64,000 bases of DNA from Octopus vulgaris (Eukaryota), in NCBI GenBank assembly GCA_951406725.2, contig OX597815.1:70618001-70682000 (forward strand). Reading direction: 5' to 3'. A program made the translations under genes and the position numbers. Below, in pieces: positions 6,075 through 63,560 of this stretch. Numbering within the stretch: position 1 is the first letter of the stretch; the number at the start of each line of letters is the position of its first letter. The notes beneath the pieces were generated by a model, which did no database searches, was not told the DNA's origin, and worked only from the letters and a program-made list of their open reading frames with translations.

Positions 6075-6762
<688 letters not shown>

Positions 6763-8084: not shown

Positions 8085-10188
8085 TAAATATTTGTTGTGC
8101 AAGATTTTTTATGTGAAGTCATGTGTTGAAACAGATATTGTTATATTTCGGAATGGTCATATTGCCAGTTTAGCCAATAAAAACACACGCACTATATATT
8201 TGGTGTTATTTTGCACATGCACTAGGAGCTAGTATAAGAGTTACCCTAAAAGGCCACACATTTAAATTTAATAATAAAATATATGCCCAGGACGAGGGGG
8301 CAGCCATCGGTGTTAGTATCGCTGGTGATGTGGCCAACCTCTTCATGGTATGGTGGGACAGAAGGCTTAAAGAATGCCTACTGCAGAAATCCATACTCGT
8401 AAACATGTACTCTCGCTATGTTGATGATATCAATATAGTAGTAAAGGCACCCCCACAAGAGAGTACTGTTGATATAGTAATAGAAACTAATACTATGGAG
8501 AGCATCCAGCAAATAGCTAACTCCATCCACCAGAGTATTAAGGTCACAATAGACTACCCCACTAAACACCCCAACCATAGACTACCAGTACTAGACACTG
8601 AACTCTGGCTAGAAATTGTGAAAAATAAAACCCAAATCCTTCATTCATACTATGCAAAACCTATGGCCTCAAAATACCTGATCCACCGGAACTCAGCCAT
8701 TGCGGGCAATGCCAAATTCAATATTTTGATGGCAGACCTCGTCAGAATAATGAGAAATGTGTCACGCATGTGCGAGCCTACAGAATTAAAGAGACACATA
8801 CAGTATTTCATTCACCGCATGCAGTTCTCAGGTTACAGCCATAAAGAAAGGATCAGAGTATACAAAGGAGCCATGAAGAAATTTGATAATATATTATGTA
8901 ATGATAGGAATGGGATTTGCCCACTCTATAGGAATAAGTCATGGAACACTATAGAAAGGACAAAAAAGAAAATAGGGAAGGCCAACTCTTGGTATGATAG
9001 CCATAAATACCAGAGTGTCATGTTCGTTGACACCACCCCTGGAGGTGAACTAGCGTACCGCTTTAGAAGGACCCTAGATAAACTTAAACTAAGAATTAAG
9101 GTTGTTGAAAAGCCAGGCAACCCTATCAGATCTATAATTGGTAGAAGCTATCCTTTTAGTAGAACTCTCTGTACGGATAACTATTGCACTGTATGTAGAT
9201 TTAGCCCACAAACGAACTGTAAAGCCAGAAATGTGGTCTATAGTATAAGATGTATAGAGGGACGATGCAGTAACAAGACAGTAACATACGTAGGGGAAAC
9301 TGCAAGAAGCATTGGTGAGCGGGTGAATGAACATTGGAGACAACTCAAGGAAGGTAAAAGCTCATCGATTCTGTACCAACACGCCGAACAAGAACACGGG
9401 GGATCAATCAATAACATAGAGATTAAGATATTGTCCACACATAGAACAGATGCAACAATTAGACAAATTACAGAAGCTACATATATAATAGAAAATAAAC
9501 CTAGCCTGAATAGAAAACTAGAATGGAGCAATAGCGCACACCACAACATATGACAATAGTGGATCCTGCAAACATAATAAATACACAGGTAATTAAAGAA
9601 ATAGAAATGAATATCTATATGTGTATGTATGTGTGTATATATGTATGTATATGTATATGTATATGTATGTATATATATATATGTATATGTATATATATAT
9701 TTTTTTTTTTTTCGATTTTTTTCGATTAGATTTATTATTATTATTACTAATATTGTTGTTATACATACAAACATATGTAATGATAATAATGGGTGGATGT
9801 AAACACATGAACAAAATTAGAACAAAAGCAACAACAACAAAAACAAAATACAAATTACAAGAATGTATATAACCAGAAGATACAAATATTACAGGCATCC
9901 CCCCACACACACTAAATAAACATAGACGCACATAGAGATATAAGCATGCGCAAATGAAGACATACAATAGAAATACAAAATGGCTGACGGTTAGTAAGGA
10001 GAGACACAAGTAAGTGAGAAGAAAACAAAGGACCACTGATGCGGTCACAGGAGTGTGACGAAAGAACTTTGGCCGAAATAAGATTAAGATTAATGTAAAA
10101 AATAAATATCACTGAAGCAAAATAACACCAAATATATAGTGCGTGTGTTTTTATTGGCTAAACTGGCAATATGACCATTCCGAAATAT

Positions 10189-22791: not shown

Positions 22792-23100
22792 GGCTAATAC
22801 AACCAATTATTATAAAATAATATGGCTAACACAACTAATTATTATAAAATAACATCTAATTATCATAAAATAAGGCGGCAAGCTGGCAGAATCGTTAGCA
22901 CGCCGGGCGAAATGCGTAGCCGTATTTCGTCTGTCGCACATGTGTTCGTGAAGTAAGAATTGCTGTTTCGTGGTGTTAATATTGTTAACAACTGTTGTTT
23001 CTTGTTAAACTGTTGAATAACTTAACTGTTGGAGTTTTCAATTGAAAACACTTAGTGCTTGTGGTAGCACGCGTTGTTCATTCCCCCTTTGGGGGGAAGA

Positions 23101-24627
23101 ATGTCGTCTAGCATGGAGCCTACCGTTGGAGCAGAAATACTTGTTTCTCTTGTTGAGAGGAGGAAATACATGTCCGGCGAGGAGCCAACTACAGACAAGG
23201 AAATAGGGGTTTCCCCCGCTACAAGAAGGAATAGCAGAGAGGATAATATATTTGATATTTTTGGAGATGTGTCTGAGAGCTCGTTAGAACTTTCACCAGA
23301 AGAGTTTCCGACTTTGCCAGAGAACAAAGGCATTGTGTCGAAGAGAATAATTGATGTGCCTAGCATCCAGATAGAACCAAAAAATGGAAAAAAAAGTTTT
23401 GCGTTGGCTGCTGGGGGTGGAACCCAGATACTGTCGACGAATAAAAGCGAAATTATGAAATACAGCAAAATGATGGAAATAACTGACAACAGTGTGAAAA
23501 TTGAACCTCCGCAAAAGTTATTACAGGAAGAAAAGCAAAAAACAATAATTTTCAAAACATATTGTCTACAAAATAGAAAAATTGAAAGAATGTCAGAAGA
23601 GAAAATAGAAAAGTGCTTAAAGCCAATATTGGGCGATGTAGTATTTCTGAGAAGAGGAAAAAAATTCGGAACGGTGGAAGTAAGGTTCACCAATAAAGAA
23701 ATAGCACACAAGAACTCAGTTGAAACGTTGAAAACGAACGACGTGGAGTTAATACCCTATTATATGGGGATGAGGACGTCGCGAATAAAAATTACAAGGG
23801 TCCCGCCAGAGGTCGAACCTATGTGGTTGTTGGCGGCAGTCCTAATCAAAGAGGTAGAAAAAATTACTCTCCTCCAGGCTACCGCTACGGAAAACCCACG
23901 CTGGGATGGTCAAACAATTAATCTTCTCATTCAAGCGGACCCTAAAATAATTCAAACAATTCCTGAGACAATTGAGGTAGGGGAGGAGAACCTCGTGGTG
24001 TTTGTTGAGGGCCGAAAACCTCGATGTTTTTTATGTGGTCAATTAGGCCACATTCGAAGGAACTGCAAGGAAAATGAAGAAGAGGAGGAAGAGGAGAAAA
24101 AAGACAAAGAGGAAGAAGATAAAGAAGAAACAGATGAGAAAAAAACAACAAACAAAAGAAAAATACAACCAGCAACCCAGCCGAGAGCGGCGACTACTAC
24201 AGAACAACGACCAAAAAAGACTGCCAGAAGAGAAAAAGAAGAAAAAGGCATAATAGCCGTATACACTAAAGATACTGAGCTCATGAGAGACATTCAACTC
24301 ATAAAGACTGTAAAAAAAATTGATAACCTTTCAGAGGAATTTATCAATTACGACATATATGAAGTCTCAAATAAGACTTATAGAATTCTACAAAATAAGT
24401 ACAGAAAGACTGTATCTTCATTGAGATTAGATTTTAACAAGTCGATATTTCATGGATTACCAGCTCCGATCCCGCGAGAAAAGGAAAAGGTGGAGATTCC
24501 CCCTCCACCTGATAATTCTGTGTCGGTGGTGAGACGGGATTTTGACAAATCTATTTCCCAAGACCGTCCACCTCCGACCCTGGATAAAAAAAAAGGTGGA
24601 GGGTCCCCCTCCACCGGACAATCCTAA
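23101..24627 (+). CDS. LINE ORF1 nucleic-acid-binding protein with CCHC zinc knuckle
   Basis: Uninterrupted ORF (first ATG at 23101) with CFLCGQLGHIRRNC followed by an acidic/basic low-complexity tract. Lies directly upstream of ORF2. Confidence 0.88.
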   Translation: MSSSMEPTVGAEILVSLVERRKYMSGEEPTTDKEIGVSPATRRNSREDNIFDIFGDVSESSLELSPEEFPTLPENKGIVSKRIIDVPSIQIEPKNGKKSFALAAGGGTQILSTNKSEIMKYSKMMEITDNSVKIEPPQKLLQEEKQKTIIFKTYCLQNRKIERMSEEKIEKCLKPILGDVVFLRRGKKFGTVEVRFTNKEIAHKNSVETLKTNDVELIPYYMGMRTSRIKITRVPPEVEPMWLLAAVLIKEVEKITLLQATATENPRWDGQTINLLIQADPKIIQTIPETIEVGEENLVVFVEGRKPRCFLCGQLGHIRRNCKENEEEEEEEKKDKEEEDKEETDEKKTTNKRKIQPATQPRAATTTEQRPKKTARREKEEKGIIAVYTKDTELMRDIQLIKTVKKIDNLSEEFINYDIYEVSNKTYRILQNKYRKTVSSLRLDFNKSIFHGLPAPIPREKEKVEIPPPPDNSVSVVRRDFDKSISQDRPPPTLDKKKGGGSPSTGQS

Positions 24628-24642
24628 TTAAACAGGTAAGTG

Positions 24643-27600
24643 ATGGCTATTCACATTGGTTGTTTAAATGTTCATGGCCTGTTGTCAAGCTGGAAGCAAG
24701 GACGCTTTCTGAATGACATCAGGTCGAGAAATTTGGATGTAATTGTTGCAACGGAAACCCGGGTGAAGGGGCCAAGAGATCTGCTCCCCCTCCTGAACGG
24801 CTACGAGAAATACGTTTCTCCGAGTCGGGCGGGAGGTGGGGGTGGGGTGTTGGTCCTACTAAAAAGAAACCGGGTAGCCGAGAAAAAGTTGTTTTTTCTG
24901 ACCCAGAAGGCAGGCTGGTCGTTCTCGACTTGACATTCAGTTGTGGCAAGACAATCAGGCTGGTCGCTATTTATGCACCAAACATTATTGGCCCGCAAAC
25001 TGAATATTTTCGTGGCCTAGGAAAGTTCCTAGCCACGTCGCATTCACTAGTAGTGTTAGGAGACTCTAATACAATATGTGCAGCACACACAGATTGTGTT
25101 GGCTCAAACTCGAACATGAACAGAAAATGTAACACAGGCTTTCGGGATCTGCTAAGTCAATTTCAGCTAGCAGATCCATATAGGTTGGAGCACCCGAACA
25201 CTCCACAGTGGACGTGGTCAAATAGTGACGGGTCTACCAGAACATATCTAGATAGGATTTTAATTAGAGAAAAAGATAAGTCCATAGTTGAGTGTCCACA
25301 GTTTTTTCTAGTCAGCTACAGTGACCACAAGATGGTTACCTGTAAACTGACGGTAGATAAGTTGCATAGACAGGGATCTGGCTACTGGAAACTCAATACG
25401 TCCCTTTTGGCGATTGAGGAGTACAGAAAGCGGATCAAGATGTTAATACAGAGGGCATTAACAGGTACCATCATTAATAACAAATGGTGGTACGCCCTAA
25501 AAAGAGCCATCAAATATGAGTCTATTAGGTTTAGCATAAGTTTAGCTAAGAAGGGACGTAAAATAGGAGATGGTCTAGTTAAGGAACTAGAAGAAGCCTG
25601 GAGGACTGGTAATACAGACCAAGCGAGGGTGAAAAGACTGGAGTTAAACCAGCATCTTGAAGCCCACCACATGGGAAGTATTACCAGAGCTAAGTTACGT
25701 GCAATGGGAAGTGAAGGAATCAAAGCCGCTGGATGGGCCCGAGTGGTGGAAGCTCGGCAAGGAAATAGTTCCTCTATTCGGTCTTTGACGAATCAAAATG
25801 GTGTCTTGATAAACGAACCCGAGAAAATGTGTGAGGTCTTTCGGGAGTACTTCGCCCAGCTGTTCGGGGGTGACGGCGGTCCTGGTGGTGGGAGAGCCCT
25901 CGAGGACTTTCTTACCGGGCTGCCGTGCCTCTCGGGGTCGGATGCGGAGTCTTGCGAAGGGCCAATCACACTTGAGGAGGTGATGGAGGCTTTGGCCGAT
26001 TGTAAAGCGGGTAAGTCACCGGGACTTGATGGTCTTCCGTACGAGCTGTATAAATGTATGCCAGACTTGTTCGGGCAACTACTGACTGACGTGTACGCGA
26101 ACTGGAAACAGAATGGGTTTATCCCCAGATCTGTGCGCCGGGGAGTAGTGACGTTGGTCAGAAAGGACCCGGACAAGGGGGACGTTCTAGAGAATTTCAG
26201 GCCCATCACTCTGTTAAACGCAGAAGTGAAGATTTTGGCCAAGGTTCTAGCAAAAAGGTTGGCGCGTGTCGCGAATGGTATAGTCGGGGAGGCACAGACA
26301 TGTGCCATCCCAGGCAGAACCATTCAGGATACCCTCCATCTTATTCGCTATACCATAGAGAGGTTTGGTAATAAATCTGGCAAAGGTGGGGCATTGGTGC
26401 ATTTGGACCAGTCTAAAGCTTTTGATAGGGTTGAACATCGATACCTAGCGACTGTGCTTGCGCGGTTTGGCCTGGGCCTTGGCTTCCTCAGGTGGTTTAT
26501 CGCTTTGTACCACAACATTGACTCGATAGTTCGGGTGAACGGTTTCCTTTCGAAGCCGTTCTGCATCAGACGCTCGGTTCGTCAAGGATGTCCGCTTTCA
26601 CCACTTTTGTATGTGATGGCTCTCGAGCCATTACTGCAAAGGTTGAGTGGCATCCCGAGAGAACCAGGACTAGAGGAGTTTGTTACGGCTTTCGCGGATG
26701 ATATCACTATCAGTGTAACCACAGTGGCACGCCTACGTGAAGTAGGTAAGACTATTGAGGCTTACGAGGAGGTAGCAGGAGCAAAGATTAACCGGGAAAA
26801 GTCGGTCGGCTTGCAGCTCGGCACCTGGGTTGGCAAGTCGATGCCTTCAGACAGTGTTGTTAGGCGCTGGACGGAGGGACCGGTTAAGTTGCTGGGAGTC
26901 TGGTTTGGACCAGGCCTCCAGATAGAGAAGAACTGGACGGAGGTATTGAGCAGGGTGACTGCAGTAGTCAAGACCTGGTCTTGGCGGTGGCTATCCCTGA
27001 AAGGGAGGGCGGAAGTGGCCAATGTGTTTATCGCATCGGTCATTACCTACCGCCTGACTGTCGTGCCCTGTCCGGATTCGTGGTTGATCAGGTTGGAGAG
27101 ACAGCTCTTTCGCTTTTGTGGAAGGGCAGGTCGCCACTTGTGAAACGCTCTGTCTGCTGTCAAAAGCCTTTAAATGGAGGTTTAGGGATGCCTTGGTTAA
27201 TGATGCGCAGACATGCGTTGAGGTTGAGGCACCTCTGGATTCTCCTGGATAGTGAACGGGTGTGGTCTCCGCTGGCCAGACAAATGTTCCCTGAGTTCAA
27301 GAGTTTTTGCGAACAGGAAGCCTGGTGTTCTCGTAGACCGAGGTCGAGTGAGTGGCATAAAGAGTGCCGTAAGGCCCTCTTGCTGTTCCGGCGCTCGGGC
27401 AACGCCAGCGGTGGGGGTTCCACACGGATTTTATATAGTGGGTTGGTAGAGTCTGAATGCGACGATGGCCTGGGGTCGACTCTAGGTCTCGGATTTATTC
27501 AACTGGACAGCTTGTTTCATCGTACATTCGGGTTGAGAACGTTGGACAACTTCCAAAAGTCCTTAACCTGGCAATGCTACAGAGGTGCCTTGCCCGTTTG

Positions 27601-28041
27601 GGATAAGCTCGCAAGACATGGTAAACGTCAGTCGCCGACCTGTCCAAGATGCGGGGGGACAGGGAAACCGTCCCTCACGCTATTGTTCAGTGTCCGGAGA
27701 TAACTGAAATGTGGGCTTATGCTGAACATCTGTTGTCCGGCGAAGGAAGAGTACGACTGTCGACTGAGTCAATTATAAAAATTGACCCACCGGGAGTTCT
27801 AACGAACGAAGGTAAGAATTGTTTTCTCACGGTTGTAGCAATAGCAAAAGAGGCTGTATGGAATACTAGGATAAAAGGAATTAAGACAGGCAACTTTATC
27901 TCTGGTGACAATTTACGATCCTTTTTTTCTTTTCATTTGAAAAGGAAACTGTGGCTGGAGAAGAGGTGTCTGTCAGAGTGTACGTTCCAAAAGAGATGGA
28001 AGTATGTTGCACGAGTGTTGTGCGTGCAAGGAACCGTGTGA
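24643..28041 (+). CDS. LINE ORF2 (APE endonuclease, RT, Cys/His C-terminus) with three frameshifts
   Basis: LNVHGL, TET, IYAPN, LDRI, SDH; KSPGLDG, FRPITLLN, LDQSKAFD, QGCPLSP, FADD; CPRC...ETVPHAIVQC. Frameshifts near 24890, 27115 and 27655. Confidence 0.92.
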
Positions 28042-57964: not shown

Positions 57965-58823
57965 TAGTTACTTTAAATCAGGTACCATATGTCCAAAAGC
58001 AATTTTACCCGGCCATCCTTCTTGCCAACCGAAGTGCCATTACCGATGTCCAACAGTTGCTTTGAAAAGTTTCTGTCTGCATCATCACCGCTGAGCTGCA
58101 CTCTCATGCTGGTTGTGAGTCTCAGCTTTTGCACACTACTCCATAGGTAGGACGACTTTATAGTGGAATTTACCTCGTCAGCTCTAGTCCCCTTTGGAAC
58201 CACGGGAAGGGTTTGTTTAAAGTCACCTGGAAGTAAAACTGTGGCACCTCCTATAAGCCTGATGTTGTGTCTCAGATCCTGAAGGGCCATGTCAAGAGCG
58301 TCAAAGGAAACCTTATGGCTCATTGTCGCCTCATCCCAGATAATCAACCTGCATTCACCCAAGAGTTTGCATTCTATAGAACCACGACTAATGTTGCAGT
58401 TTGCCTTCTCTTTCTTGGACAGGTCCAAAGGGAGTTTGAAGCACGAATGAGCTGTGTGGCCACCACTTAGCAAAGTTGCAGCTATTACACTTGACGCCAC
58501 TGCTATGGCAATGTTTCATTTGACGCAGTTTATCCAGAAGTTTGATGACAAATATCTTGTCAGTTCCACCTGGAGTATCCAGCAAGAAAAGACTTCCTCT
58601 TTCACTTTCAATGCTTGAAATAATAGTCTTATAAACACCCAGTTGGTCCTCTATCAGTTTGTGTTCGTTATCAGCTATTTACGCCGTCATTTCCTCGATG
58701 TCATAGCTGATTTCTCGCAGGTACTCAATCGTGAGATTGTTTGCTGCCTGCTCCGGTTGAGGCAAACCAAATGTGGCAATGCCTTGACTTCCCATACCTT
58801 GCACTCAGATGTACAAGTCAAGT
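57965..58823 (-). pseudogene. Helitron PIF1 helicase region, decayed
   Basis: LDTPGGTDKIF (Walker A relic), ASSVIAATLLSGGHTAHS, LIIWDEATM, GDFKQTLPVV, LRLTTSMRV, LLDIGNG. Confidence 0.92.
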
Positions 58824-58828
58824 AGTGC

Positions 58829-59107
58829 TGTGGGATGACGTCAGCAGCCGGGTGCGTTGACCGGAAGCTGGGGCAACCGGAAGGGGTCAGCCGTCAGGCG
58901 TGCGCAGGGAGCGGGAATTGCGCCCTTTCCAACGTGGGTCTTGCAGGTGACAAGACGTGTGAGGACGTCGCTAAGGGTTTGGGCTAGCAACTGCTATCGT
59001 TAGTGTTCGGGTCGGGGCTGTGAGGAAGGACTAGTCATCACTGGAGGGTCTCCGTCACTAAGAAGAGAAGGTAGGTGCCTCTATATTCAAATCGCGCACA
59101 CACTACA
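58829..59107 (+). repeat. 5' LTR (279 bp)
   Basis: Direct repeat of 62700-62978; five substitutions counted by eye. Confidence 0.97.
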
Positions 59108-59119
59108 AGCTATTTCGGC
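59108..59119 (+). promoter_or_regulatory. Non-canonical primer-binding site complementary to tRNA-Phe nt 1-12
   Basis: AGCTATTTCGGC abuts the 5' LTR. Its reverse complement GCCGAAATAGCT is the 5' end of animal cytosolic tRNA-Phe(GAA). Confidence 0.8.
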
Positions 59120-59151
59120 CGTTCTTAAACATTTACATTTTTTTCAACACG

Positions 59152-59916
59152 ATGTCTGCAAAAATTAGGATCGCCAGTGACGTCGTCAGACCTTTTAATG
59201 GCGAAGGCGATGTAGTGGCCTGGATTCGTAAAATCAGGCTGGTGGTAAGACTGCAGGGCATAAGCGACGTGGCGAGTCTTATGGCGCTGTATTTAGAAGG
59301 GAGCGCGTTAACGCTCTACCTAGAGATGGATGAAGAGGAACGACTCAGCGAGGAGAATATAGAGCGACGCTTGCGTGATGCCTACACGGAATGCGAGTAC
59401 ACAGCTTTTGCTAATCTAGGTGCAATCAGGTGGACGGGAGGCCAAGTGGATGACTTTGCATCAGAAGCTAGAAGGCTAGCGACTCTGGCCGGGTTTGCCG
59501 GAGAAGGACTGGAGAGAGCAGCCCGACTGGCGTTCGTGAATGGGTTCCCCGACGATGTAGGGATTCACCTACAACGACTGCCCGGGGTTAAAAAGATGTC
59601 GTTGAGCGAACTTGTAGCTCAGGTTCGCGTGTTGACGAGACACTCTGGGCGGAAGGCGATAGCGATGGCGGTGACGGAGGCGCGTAAAGACGGACGACGT
59701 CCCGAGAAAGAGGTACAGAAGCTTACCGTGCAACGAGAGCGGCCGTTCTCAGGACGGTGTTTTAGATGCCAGGGACCGCACATGGCGCGGGACTGTACGC
59801 AGCCGGGGCCCGTTTGCTATCGATGCAGGCAGACAGGGCACATTGCCCGTGATTGCGACCAGGGAAACGACCGCGGGGAAGTTGCTGCCTCTCGAACTTT
59901 CCCCTCAAACGAGTAG
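59152..59916 (+). CDS. gag: Gag with two CCHC zinc knuckles
   Basis: Intact 254-aa ORF; CFRCQGPHMARDC and CYRCRQTGHIARDC. Confidence 0.93.
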   Translation: MSAKIRIASDVVRPFNGEGDVVAWIRKIRLVVRLQGISDVASLMALYLEGSALTLYLEMDEEERLSEENIERRLRDAYTECEYTAFANLGAIRWTGGQVDDFASEARRLATLAGFAGEGLERAARLAFVNGFPDDVGIHLQRLPGVKKMSLSELVAQVRVLTRHSGRKAIAMAVTEARKDGRRPEKEVQKLTVQRERPFSGRCFRCQGPHMARDCTQPGPVCYRCRQTGHIARDCDQGNDRGEVAASRTFPSNE

Positions 59917-59920
59917 AGGC
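59862..59920 (+). promoter_or_regulatory. Predicted -1 ribosomal frameshift signal
   Basis: G GGA AAC in the gag frame, 6-nt spacer, stem GGGGAAGTT/AACTTTCCCC, and loop GCCTCT able to pair with AGAGGC (59915-59920). The protease is in the -1 frame. Confidence 0.8.
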
Positions 59921-62686
59921 GCTATTGGAGACGCTGCCATTGATTGACGTGGAGGCCGAGGGCGAGACGTTCAAGGCCCTTGTGGATACGGGCTGTACGA
60001 CCACCCTGGTGACTTCGAGGGTGACGAAGGAATGGAACGGGGTGAGTAGTGTCCGGGCGGTCGACGGCAGCGAAATCCGTTGCAGAGGCAGCAGTAAGGT
60101 AGAGATAGTGGTGCGCGGCGCGACGCTAAGGCTGCAGGCAATTGTGGCCGAACGCGTGATAGATAGAGTTGATGTGGTGATGGGGATGGACGCCATCAAC
60201 TGCCTCGGTGGCGTCAGTGTTGTGGGAAATGAGGTCACGTTCGGAAGCGTGGGGGCGTCGTGCACTGCGAGTCAGGATCGCCAGAGAGAGCAGAGCCCCG
60301 CGAGGGACTGCGCCGCTTACACCATCGAGGACAAAGACTTTCAGGCGGTGGACGATAGAGTGGCGATGGAAGGACGAGCCCCCGACGCTGGAGAACAGGG
60401 TGAGCTGTTACCAGCATACCCTGAAAGGCCACGCCAGGGTCGAGTTTGAAGACAAGGTGGAGAGGTGGATCGAGGAAGGGGTCCTTGTCCCTTGGAAGGA
60501 GGAGTTAGCGGGCGGAGTGCTACCCCTGATGACGGTGGTGCAGCCTACGAAGGGAAAAGTCAGACCGGTGCTGGACTTCAGGGAGCTAAACCAGCACATA
60601 TCATGTCACACGGGAGGTGAGGCGACAGACGTTTGTGGCGAGGCATTACGTAAGTGGAGACAGTCGACTGAGGCAGCGACGATTGTCGACTTGAGATCGG
60701 CATACTTGCAGCTCCATGTGAGCGACAAACTGTGGCGATATCAGCTGGTGCGGTACAAGGGCCGGACGTACTGTCTAACCAGGCTGGGTTTCGGGCTGAA
60801 TTCCGCTCCGAAGATCATGGCGGCAGTGCTTAGGTTCGTCCGAGGGAAAGACGGCAAGATTAGAAAGGCCACCAGCTCCTACATTGACGACATTTTGGTG
60901 GACGAAACTGTAGTGCCAGCCGACGAGGTAGTTAGACATCTGGAGAAGTTCGGACTGATTGCTAAGCCACCGGAGTCGATTGAAGGGGGAGCCGCGCTGG
61001 GGCTGAAGCTGCGAAGAGATGGATCAGGTGAATTGGTGTTCCGGAGAGGAAATGAAATCCCAGAGCTGAGTTCCAGCGTCAGCAGGAGAGAGCTGTTCTC
61101 GGTGTGTGGGAAGTTAGTCGGTCACTACCCGATCGTTGGATGGCTGCGCACGGCCTGTAGTTACACCAAGAGACGAGCAGAAGGAGAGAGGTGGGGCGAC
61201 AAGGTGGGAGAAGGGACGGTGGCGATGATGCAGGAGATCCTAGAGAGGACAAGAGCGGAAGACCCGGTCAGAGGGAACTGGTACGTGACCAAGACGAAAT
61301 GCGGGACCATCTGGTGTGATGCTAGCAGTATAGCGATAGGGGTGGTGTTGGCAACCGAAGGCACTGCGGTGGAGGACGCGGCCTGGCTTCGGAAAGCAGA
61401 TGATTTCAACCACATCAATGTCGCCGAATTAGACGCGCTGCTGAAACTTGGCCTTGAAATGGGGGCTGCGCACGATTGAAATCCGGACGGATTCGGCCAC
61501 TGTGCTTGGCTGGTGACAGGAGAGTGCGGACGAAAGGTGCTGCGGAGATGTTAGTGAAGGGCCATCTAGGAGTTCTAGGTGAATTGATCGCCGAGTTCGG
61601 ACTGAAGCTGAACGTGGTTTTCGTGCCTTCGGAGAAAAACAGGGCGGACGTACTGACCAGGGTGAAAAGAGCGTGGTTGGAAGAACCGGAGGAGGCCCGG
61701 AAAGGGATAGCTGCGGCGTGTCGGTTGGATGACTCTGAACTGAAGGAACTGCATGCTATGCATCACCTGGGTGTGGACAGGACCCTGTATCTGGCAAAAA
61801 AAATTGATGCTGACGTCACTAGGAGAAGCGACCGGAAGGTGGTCGGGAGCTGCGACAGGTGTCAGTCCATCGACCCTGCTCCGTGTGGACATGAACAGGG
61901 AAGCCTTTCCGTGGAGCAGAACTGGAAAAGGCTAGCTGTGGATGTGACACACTACCGTCAGCGAATGTACCTCTCCATGGTCGACTGCGGGCCGGGCCGG
62001 CTGGCCATTTGGAGGAGTTGAGATCGGGCATTGCTGACGAGATCGTGCAGATCCTGAACGGGATATTTTTAGAGAGAGGTCCCGTGGAAGAACTACTGAT
62101 GGACAACGGGGCGGCGTTTCGTTCGGAAGCATTGAAGGTTATGCTTGATCGGTGGAATGTGCGACGCTTGATCAGAGCAGCGTATAGGCCGAGCGGTAAC
62201 GGGATCGTGGAGAGGCACCATCGGACAGTCAAGGCCATAGCGGAAAGAGGGCACATTTCGCCGCTTGAAGCAGTTTTTTGGTACAACTTGTCTCCCCGAT
62301 CCGGACAAGCTGAGGAATCTGTGCCGCAGAGAGCTGTGTTCAAATATGAATGGAGGCACCCGAGCAAAGCGCCGGAGGGTCACGAGGAAGAGAAGGGACC
62401 CGTTCGCGTGAAAATAGGGGAGGAAGTCTGGGTCAAGCCACCAAAGGCGCGCTGTACGTCTCAATGGAGCAGAGGAACGGTGACGGCGATCAATTCCAGA
62501 AGCAACGTATCCGTAGATGGAACACCACGACACGTCTTGGACCTTCGCAGGATTGTTGCTTCGACGGACGATGATTCTGGAGAGGGGGAGAACGAGGAGC
62601 CCAGCTTGAGAAGATCTCGACGAGCAAGGCGCTCTCCCGGTTGGATGGTGGACTACAACATGGAGCGGAGAGATTGTGATCTTTAA
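59865..62686 (+). pseudogene. pol: pol (protease, RT, RNase H, integrase) broken by frameshifts near 60345, 61445-61515 and 62015
   Basis: ALVDTG; RPVLDFRELN, VDLRSAYLQ, GFGLNSAP, YIDD; WCDAS, HINVAELDA, TDSATV, NRADVLTR; H...H...CDRC, LAVD, DNG, GIVER. Confidence 0.93.
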
Positions 62687-62699
62687 GATCAGGGTGGCG

Positions 62700-62978
62700 T
62701 GTGGGATGACGTCAGCAGCCGGGTGCGTTGACCGGAAACTGGGGCAACCGGAAGGGGTCAGCCGTCAGGCGTGCACAGGGAGCGGGAATTGCGCCCTTTC
62801 CAACGTGGGTCGTGCAGGTGACAAGACGTGTGAGGACGTCGCTAAGGGTTTGGGCTAGCAGCTGCTATCGTTAGTGTTCGGGTCGGGGCTATGAGGAAGG
62901 ACTAGTCATCACTGGAGGGTCTCCGTCACTAAGAAGAGAAGGTAGGTGCCTCTATATTCAAATCGCGCACACACTACA
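62700..62978 (+). repeat. 3' LTR (279 bp)
   Basis: Direct repeat of 58829-59107, preceded by a weak purine-rich tract AAGATCAGGGTGGCG. Confidence 0.97.
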
Positions 62979-63560
62979 AGTGCCTCATTGTAAATGGCAT
63001 TATTGAATGTGACAATTTCCGTTGAGTTTTGCCTTTGAATCCTTCCTAGGATGTTCTCTGCCATGCTGGTTTTGTTGGTCGCCCAAAGCTTGAGAGGTTC
63101 ACCCAAACCGCATGTCATCATGATAGAAAATAGCTGGTACAGTTGACTTGGTACTCTGCTGACTGTTGCCTCCTCCAGTGTCTGATTCCAGTGAGCATTG
63201 GCCTCCAGTAATCCATGTTTGGCGCAGGTTTCTCTGTAGGTCGTGCAAACTTCCTCATTGTGTCTTCGAAAGTCTGTGAATGATGTAGGACCTCTGGCAG
63301 TGTGCAACAGTAGACGCTGAAAGAAGCACTCCTACTGATTAGAATGCACAGTAGTGTACACTCGTCCGATGGCCTCACTTCTGAAGACAGCATCTTCTTC
63401 CCAGCCAACAACGTGAGCCCCTTGATTGTGTCTGTTCTATCTATTGTATGCTCAGGTATAGTACACGGAAACTTCAACATACAACAGTGTTCAGGCGAAC
63501 ATATCACACTCGCTTAATTTGAAGAAAGCTGTCAAAGTGGTTTCTGATGTGACACACTTG
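62979..63560 (-). pseudogene. Helitron Rep-to-helicase linker region, decayed
   Basis: TTLTAFF, LLLHTARGPTSFTDFR, TYRETCAKHGLLE...HWNQTLEEA. Reading continues in frame across the LTR insertion (YNEAL|LDLYI*VQGMG...FGLPQP). Confidence 0.9.

Follow-up and report, generated by a model that had tools for sequence, protein, structure and literature searches.

Primers of LTR retrotransposons

In ordinary long terminal repeat (LTR) retrotransposons, the primer-binding site (PBS) pairs with the 3' CCA end of a host tRNA, and the 3' end of the primer sets the inner edge of the LTR. A survey of plant LTR elements, in the portion accessible to us, lists three types of primer: whole tRNAs that prime with their 3' end, half-tRNAs produced by a cut in the anticodon stem, and self-primers (PMC6317226). 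Half-tRNA priming is described, in the accessible parts of the sources, for Drosophila copia, Ty5, Osser, Bryco, Bianca, and fungal Helenus. Its primer is a 5' tRNA fragment with an internally made 3' end, its PBS pairs with the anticodon stem-loop, and it is known from Copia lineages and their dependants (PMC6317226, PMC10886601, PMC5371799). In Tf1, Tf2, Tj1, and the Tf1-sushi group, as far as the excerpts go, an 11-12 nt primer made of the extreme 5' terminus of an RNA lies on the PBS and must be cut at the duplex edge, which RNase H does in Tf1 (PMC7175516, PMC4600332), cleaving between bases 11 and 12 (PMC7175516).

We read a 12-mer that follows the 5' LTR of an Octopus vulgaris element as the minus-strand PBS of a distinct LTR lineage, for which a host tRNA would be cut in trans by the RNase H of the element; for this whole chain, which is drawn from sequence comparison, the probability is about one half. 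As in the half-tRNA elements, the primer would be a 5' tRNA fragment, but the octopus lineage pairs with nt 1-12 (the 5' strand of the acceptor stem to the D-stem) of Phe or Lys-type tRNAs. Anticodon half-tRNA priming and membership of Ty1/Copia were rejected on this register and on the position of the integrase after RNase H. The length, the 5'-terminal origin, and the required cut are those of the Tf1 group. However, Tf1 self-primes with its own transcript in the accessible descriptions, whereas the RNA here would be a host tRNA acting in trans, without a complement in the LTR (PMC7175516, PMC4600332). Also, the reverse transcriptase (RT) of the octopus lineage is far from the sampled Gypsy RTs.

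The site most likely represents a fourth primer class for LTR retrotransposons, judged from its sequence. If so, this class joins the geometry of Tf1 with a host tRNA and could link tRNA priming mechanistically to self-priming. It would also predict that a host tRNA is cut under the direction of a guide and that very short 5' tRNA fragments arise from a new source. Pipelines that test tRNA 3' ends only, as one does in the part of its description available (PMC13524379), would score such elements as lacking a PBS. No earlier description of the site or its register was found in the full-text literature searched, which was covered mostly as titles and the starts of abstracts, with Repbase, subscription journals, and bioRxiv supplements lying outside the search; we think it unlikely that the site has already been noted somewhere in the literature or in Repbase.

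Structure of the octopus element

The retrotransposon spans positions 58829-62978 of the window, the whole 64,000-nt stretch of O. vulgaris DNA that was analyzed, and all of its features are on the forward strand. The target-site duplication (TSD) AGTGC flanks it at 58824..58828 and 62979..62983. The two direct LTRs (58829..59107 and 62700..62978) are each 279 bp long, run from TG to CA, and show 5 differences (1.8%). Between them, gag (59152..59916; 254 aa) carries two CX2CX4HX4C zinc knuckles (59758-59796 and 59815-59856), and pol (59853..62686) encodes, in order, protease, RT, DUF7047, RNase H, and an integrase with HHCC and rve domains. The RT motif YIDD is found at 60880-60891, and the RNase H motifs are WCDAS at 61312, HINVAEL at 61411, TDS at 61487, and NRAD at 61638. 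A G-rich stretch resembling a polypurine tract (PPT; 62692..62699) precedes the 3' LTR. The direct TG..CA LTRs, the TSD, the gag-protease-RT-RNase H-integrase order, and the PPT are those of an LTR retrotransposon. The pol of this copy is broken: the frame changes between protease and RT and again inside both RNase H and the integrase.

Two smaller features of the coding region can be mentioned here. In the window copy, the heptamer GGGAAAC lies in the gag frame at 59862-59868, where gag overlaps the -1 frame of the protease, and is likely a -1 frameshift site, going by its sequence. Just 5' of the PPT is the inverted repeat TGATCT-TTA-AGATCA (62677..62691), which is seen in distant relatives too. 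A GATC-spacer-GATC inverted repeat before the PPT recurs in L074-L092, L103, L104, L105, L114, L115, and L135, reaching relatives with about 46% RT identity, and it could have a role in dimerization or in PPT selection.

A 12-mer complementary to the 5' end of tRNA-Phe

An earlier sequence-only reading of this DNA had placed AGCTATTTCGGC immediately next to the 5' LTR, without a TGG, and had claimed a 12/12 match that stops both at tRNA nt 1 and at the LTR edge. Both claims were borne out. The 12-mer occupies 59108..59119 with 0 bases between it and the LTR, and it is the exact complement of nt 1-12 of host tRNA-Phe(GAA). That the host tRNA begins in this way, which had been assumed, was confirmed in the octopus genome: a 25-nt pattern of the tRNA-Phe 5' end has 77 exact matches there (control, 0), and ARAGORN called tRNA-Phe(GAA) at all 12 motif loci fetched, with the gene start at the first base of the motif in 11 and 1 nt before it in 1. 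Among 87 tRNA-Phe start matches in the same genome, the bases opposite positions 7-8 of the site are AA in 85 and AG in 2, and variant 12-mers with CG or TG opposite these positions start no tRNA-Phe gene there. About 46 of the tRNA-Phe 5' motifs form a tandem array with a 200-bp period (G000:C18:30147728-30157146).

Read from the sequences, the terminal CA of the LTR faces tRNA nt 13-14 without pairing. Within the element, 59108-59119 forms the best duplex with tRNA nt 1-12 (-19.8 kcal/mol, against -14.6 for the next site). The co-folded tRNA and element RNA reach -35.1 kcal/mol compared to -24.7 when separate, in a calculation in which RNAfold did not give the cloverleaf of the tRNA. The site would have to invade the stable acceptor stem.

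One could also consider that the tRNA stays intact, with the site anchoring its 5' strand while the freed 3'-CCA end starts synthesis elsewhere, either at a second site or after a template jump, in the manner of a bipartite PBS. Bipartite PBSs are used by Ty1 and Ty3, according to the accessible part of one paper (PMC5371799). In the window element, 16 contiguous pairs (G.U included) can form between tRNA-Phe nt 13-28 and the stretch at 62628..62643 on the forward strand, with a score of 35 against a shuffle maximum of 28, and this match is unchanged in 23 of 29 copies of the window family. However, it is confined to that family, being absent at that position from a second octopus family and from distant relatives. 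The LTR edge of the window element has no TGG and no complement of a tRNA 3' end, no other PBS is present, and the LTR boundary coincides with nt 12 instead of the CCA end. An intact tRNA primer is thus improbable. The 62628-62643 stretch, found post hoc and lying in coding sequence, begins its pairing exactly where the primer site stops; it is possibly an auxiliary site or a chance match.

Conservation within the octopus genome

In the family of the window element, the exact 12-mer is present in 28 of 30 copies (the best 30 of 40 scored, among 543 candidates, with the window copy included), and the other 2 differ at one base. The site varies at 2/360 positions, compared to 66/1790 (3.7%) in the adjacent LTR end and 45/956 (4.7%) in the leader; the start of gag is about as invariant as the site (3/836). 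The genome contains 279 junctions of ACA with the 12-mer, compared to 3 matches of a reversed control. When 20 of these junctions were sampled from the first 100 among the matches listed, 17 led into a gag of this lineage, and the base after the 12-mer was free. The expectation that other copies keep the 12-mer, with no TGG site in its place, therefore held, and of the two outcomes named beforehand as fatal to the idea, a different start of host tRNA-Phe and a normal TGG in other copies, neither was seen.

The same genome holds a second family, with 71-75% identity in RT-RNase H and with an LTR and leader that differ from those of the window family. Its loci carry the exact 12-mer in 13 of 20 cases and a single change in 3, and the other 4 have no complete 5' LTR end. 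As a control, ordinary Gypsy loci of the octopus were fetched (13), and TGG lies 0-2 nt past the CA in all 11 that show an LTR pair. Junctions of the Lys type were not found in the octopus genome (0). In contigs from 4 sequencing runs, which do not show starts or ends, none of the 40 rows listed, out of 104, is a variant within 59108-59119. The locus L335 is a short, TRIM-like derivative whose LTR starts are 613 bp apart and whose primer site is kept.

Conservation and variation in distant relatives

Scanning metagenomes yielded 69 loci, which were anchored on gag by a protein profile only; 42 had upstream sequence and 40 of these were non-redundant. An initial pattern built from the data was too loose at two mismatches and was replaced by this gag-anchored, unseeded test. 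The relatives in the test have about 42-59% RT-RNase H identity to the window element. An unseeded motif search upstream of their gag genes returned nACAAGCTATCnCGGC, with a score of 652 against 225 for shuffles, and the register of CA followed by the 12-mer was aligned in 38 of the 40 pre-gag zones, those of L154 and L160 being degenerate. The exact site in L093 lies farther upstream of gag, and the zone of L143, which has a weak gag match, has no site (1/40). A strict site pattern matched 30/40 pre-gag zones and 0/56 control zones, and allowing one mismatch gave 35/40 and 3/56. With two mismatches, the junction pattern matched 16/56 control zones, so L143, L144, and L153 are not counted as sites. 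The site abuts the LTR end where a whole LTR pair is visible, in L104 and partly in L111; for most of the relatives the LTR edge was placed by the CA, since many contigs are permuted or partial. Two contigs from a deeper alignment (35-37% identity to its first row) also carry the site. The feature is real, lineage-wide, and sharply bounded.

The variation of the site has a shape of its own. In a table of sites picked by a pattern, with the rows of L143, L144, and L153 included, the information content is 1.6-2 bits opposite tRNA nt 1-3 and 8-12, is smallest opposite nt 5, and drops to at most 0.34 bits just past tRNA nt 1. Variation is concentrated opposite nt 4-7, a few variants (L119, L127, L154, and L160) depart opposite nt 1-3, and the variants are scattered over a quick RT tree. 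The sequence-only reading had proposed a check for matches to the 5' ends of other tRNAs, and one was found: the L126 variant is the exact complement of nt 1-12 of tRNA-Lys(CTT) from the octopus genome. The match is in the same register, so the register survives a change of isotype. The two commonest variants are distinguished by their base opposite nt 5, G in one and A in the other, either of which could pair with U. In phage and virus contigs, whose tRNAs show that such 12-mers can begin tRNAs and are not the host tRNAs of the elements, the two commonest variant 12-mers begin tRNA-Thr at 19/37 loci and tRNA-Phe at 4/37, which leaves the isotype for these variants uncertain. Covariation of the variant sites with the host tRNA is suggested by these sequences. 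The variant site of L139, CGCTACCGAGGC, is also changed opposite tRNA nt 12, suggesting another isotype.

These patterns bear on whether the 12-mer could instead be a protein-binding, packaging, or integrase-end signal that resembles a tRNA 5' end by coincidence. The conserved bases do flank the CA that integrase recognizes, and covariation with the host is only suggested. Against such a signal, the 12/12 complement is exact and reaches no farther than tRNA nt 1, the positions that vary lie opposite nt 4-7 of the acceptor stem, another variant has a second tRNA as its partner in this register, and there is no other PBS; we give this explanation little credence.

Self-priming from the transcript of the element, direct or spliced, was weighed as well, since there is no match to a tRNA 3' end and the length of 11-12 nt is like that of Tf1. 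Complementarity of the PBS to the 5' end of its own RNA, the hallmark of Tf1/sushi elements, was not found. The best complement in the LTRs of the window has 4/12 mismatches, the longest complement upstream of the site is 7 nt or less in 42/42 loci (some with only part of the LTR), and the LTRs do not share the conservation of the site. Spliced self-priming was rejected on a best spliced junction with 2-5 mismatches in 15/15 cases tested. Without an LTR complement, direct or spliced, self-priming fails, and we regard it as very improbable. Priming by a palindrome was also rejected, as the site is not palindromic.

A few loci came from unexpected places. L258 and L259 are LTR elements of the lineage, with the primer site, inside bacterial metagenome-assembled genome (MAG) contigs, which are probably eukaryotic contamination. 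No member of the lineage was found in viral contigs, where L260 is an ordinary TGG element.

Proposed priming mechanism

In the reading that we favor, priming would start with the pairing of the 12-mer to nt 1-12 of the host tRNA, Phe in this case, with nt 12 facing the LTR edge; the complementarity itself is observed. The nucleocapsid of Gag would then help the element RNA to displace the 3' strand of the acceptor stem and to open the D-stem. Since tRNA nt 12 faces the inner edge of the LTR, the primer should be a 5' fragment that ends at or near this nucleotide; the tRNA would be cut at or near the edge of the duplex, after nt 12, and the new 3'-OH would prime strong-stop DNA. Should integrase trim terminal bases, the primer may instead end at nt 10-11. 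Between the G-run that precedes the 3' LTR and the TG there are often about 2 nt; with 2 nt removed by integrase at both ends, nt 10 instead of nt 12 could be the last of the primer. Taken jointly, pairing, strand displacement, and a cut near nt 12 appear highly probable from the geometry of the site.

The cut would be the work of the element's own RNase H, which would act on the host tRNA in trans much as that of Tf1 acts on its 11-nt self-primer. The catalytic motifs of RNase H are kept in 23-25 of 25 aligned relatives, and activity is predicted from them. Alternatively, the same primer could be made by the host, either by an endonuclease or by trimming of a longer 5' tRNA fragment to the protected 12-bp duplex, with the element only capturing the product. 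A helix-measuring host nuclease, as tRNase Z is, could also explain a duplex fixed at 12 bp across relatives. Moreover, the half-tRNA primers of Ty5 are attributed to cleavage by host RNase P in the accessible part of the literature (PMC5371799). On the other hand, the cut would coincide exactly with the LTR edge regardless of the tRNA isotype, so it seems to be set by the duplex with the element and not by tRNA structure, and Tf1 shows that an RT-RNase H is capable of such a cut. A host-made primer is rather unlikely. The precedent of Tf1, the kept RNase H motifs, and the failure of self-priming favor cleavage in trans by the element RNase H over a host nuclease; given a cut near nt 12, the element's enzyme is, by analogy, the somewhat more probable agent.

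Finally, plus-strand synthesis would copy the short primer and run off at tRNA nt 1. Such a run-off would explain the exact end of the site, and it could let the site track the tRNA of the host. This step would not be general, as the PBS of Ty3 and Ty1 is not copied from the primer, according to the accessible part of the same paper (PMC5371799).

Relation to known lineages

The protein domains set the octopus lineage apart from the groups sampled. DUF7047 (Pfam) was matched by 25/25 aligned members, while the Gypsy-type RNase H profiles PF17917 and PF17919 and the BEL/Pao Peptidase_A17 (PF05380) were matched by 0/25. The GPY/F motif, which some Gypsy clades also lack, was found in 0/51 aligned rows. 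The RT motif Y/F-[IVL]-DD is present in 25/25 and 25/26 rows, and CX2CX4HX4C occurs twice. An rve integrase was detected in 24/25 members with no recombinase family, and the best solved relative of the integrase is the retroviral integrase of PDB 5cz2 (E 2.5e-15). The RT profile of the lineage found Gypsy RTs at E 7e-6 or worse and a single BEL RT at E 0.07. In a quick RT tree with thin sampling and long-branch warnings, in which one BEL and one LINE row sat on long branches, 21 lineage RTs formed a clade of their own (SH-aLRT 97), separate from the 6 Gypsy RTs (95). A structure model (pLDDT 65) followed by a fold search confirmed the RT fold only. Neighbors in a protein atlas, which were unnamed RT clusters and the hepadnavirus P protein, are leads only.

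The sequence-only reading had suggested that the Troyka elements may have similar sites. In the accessible parts of the sources, Troyka and the Kuafuorterviruses are similar in being compact animal LTR elements with the order protease-RT-RNase H-integrase, no GPY/F, and a divergent RT (PMC12440569, PMC11673190). The suggested link did not hold, and Troyka membership was rejected: Troyka is described there with CG..CG ends, a 3-bp TSD, a CX2CX8-10HX4C knuckle, and the RT motif [IVL]ADD, whereas the octopus element has TG..CA ends, the TSD is 5 bp in the window element and L074-L077, and the lineage has CX2CX4HX4C and Y/F-[IVL]-DD. The main text of the Troyka paper, in the part available, has 0 occurrences of tRNA, primer, or PBS (PMC12440569). 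In the accessible supplement on the Kuafuorterviruses (RT sets of 95, 80, and 418 taxa), where alignment gaps could hide a motif, no RLGFGL was found and the only match to RPVLD is DIRS-1 (PMC11673190).

Ty3/Gypsy elements, including the MolGy clades of mollusks as far as their description was accessible, share the domain order, TG..CA, the 5-bp TSD, and separate gag and pol frames with the octopus lineage (PMC6238403). The lineage differs in showing no PF17917/PF17919 match, no GPY/F, and no TGG site, and its RTs group apart from the 6 sampled Gypsy RTs in the quick tree. The part of the MolGy supplement available gave 0 matches in the five files searched (PMC6238403). The lineage may nevertheless be among the MolGy clades or the Gypsy entries of Repbase already, unrecognized.

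The DIRS features of a tyrosine recombinase with neither a DDE integrase nor a TSD were not found either. The octopus element differs from DIRS-1 in its direct LTRs, TSD, protease, and DDE integrase, rve was found in 24/25 members, and none of the 25 members has a match to a tyrosine recombinase. In the octopus genome, 7 tyrosine-recombinase loci have no RT. The RNase H motifs of the lineage presumably resemble those of DIRS-1. The RT motifs, compared by eye with the DIRS-1 row of the accessible Kuafuortervirus supplement, resemble it too (PMC11673190).

Named homologues were found in Argonauta (66%), Aplysia, Petrolisthes, Oratosquilla, Palaemon, Macrosteles, Nymphon, and Trichuris, and a Sycon homologue lies on a deeper branch of the lineage. 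In the Sycon-type branch (P0218, P0219, P0224, P0228, and P0231), gag and pol share one frame of about 1340-1420 aa, and the integrase region is longer. Against the pol profile, 1252 cluster representatives scored at E 1e-30 or better, some of which probably match through shared domains only. From these sequences, the lineage is apparently large and unclassified, and it lies apart from those Gypsy elements that were sampled. A broader view is tentative and, in our opinion, doubtful: the lineage would be a group at the level of a superfamily, with a DIRS-like RT-RNase H, a protease, and a DDE integrase, using the fourth primer class with an RNase H cut in trans after nt 12 and a site rewritten from the primer in each cycle, and ranging from sponges to mollusks, nematodes, arthropods, and possibly protists. 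If this is true, the rewriting of the site would let an element re-tune to a new host tRNA or isotype after transfer.

Other features of the window

The element is inserted in a minus-strand fragment of a PIF1 helicase (Helitron-like), which lies at 57973-58515 and about 62979-63513; the right-hand part appears from its sequence to be the continuation of the left. Elsewhere in the window are a Penelope-like RT with a GIY-YIG domain (8174-9553) and a LINE-type element with a zinc-knuckle ORF and an endonuclease-RT (23068-28041). Beside long TA runs, at 6304-6762, lies an inverted repeat whose 229-bp arms match perfectly across a 1-nt spacer; it is possibly an assembly fold-back or a MITE. A one-mismatch match to the 12-mer at 6562-6573 was rejected as a candidate site, as it falls inside this unrelated repeat.
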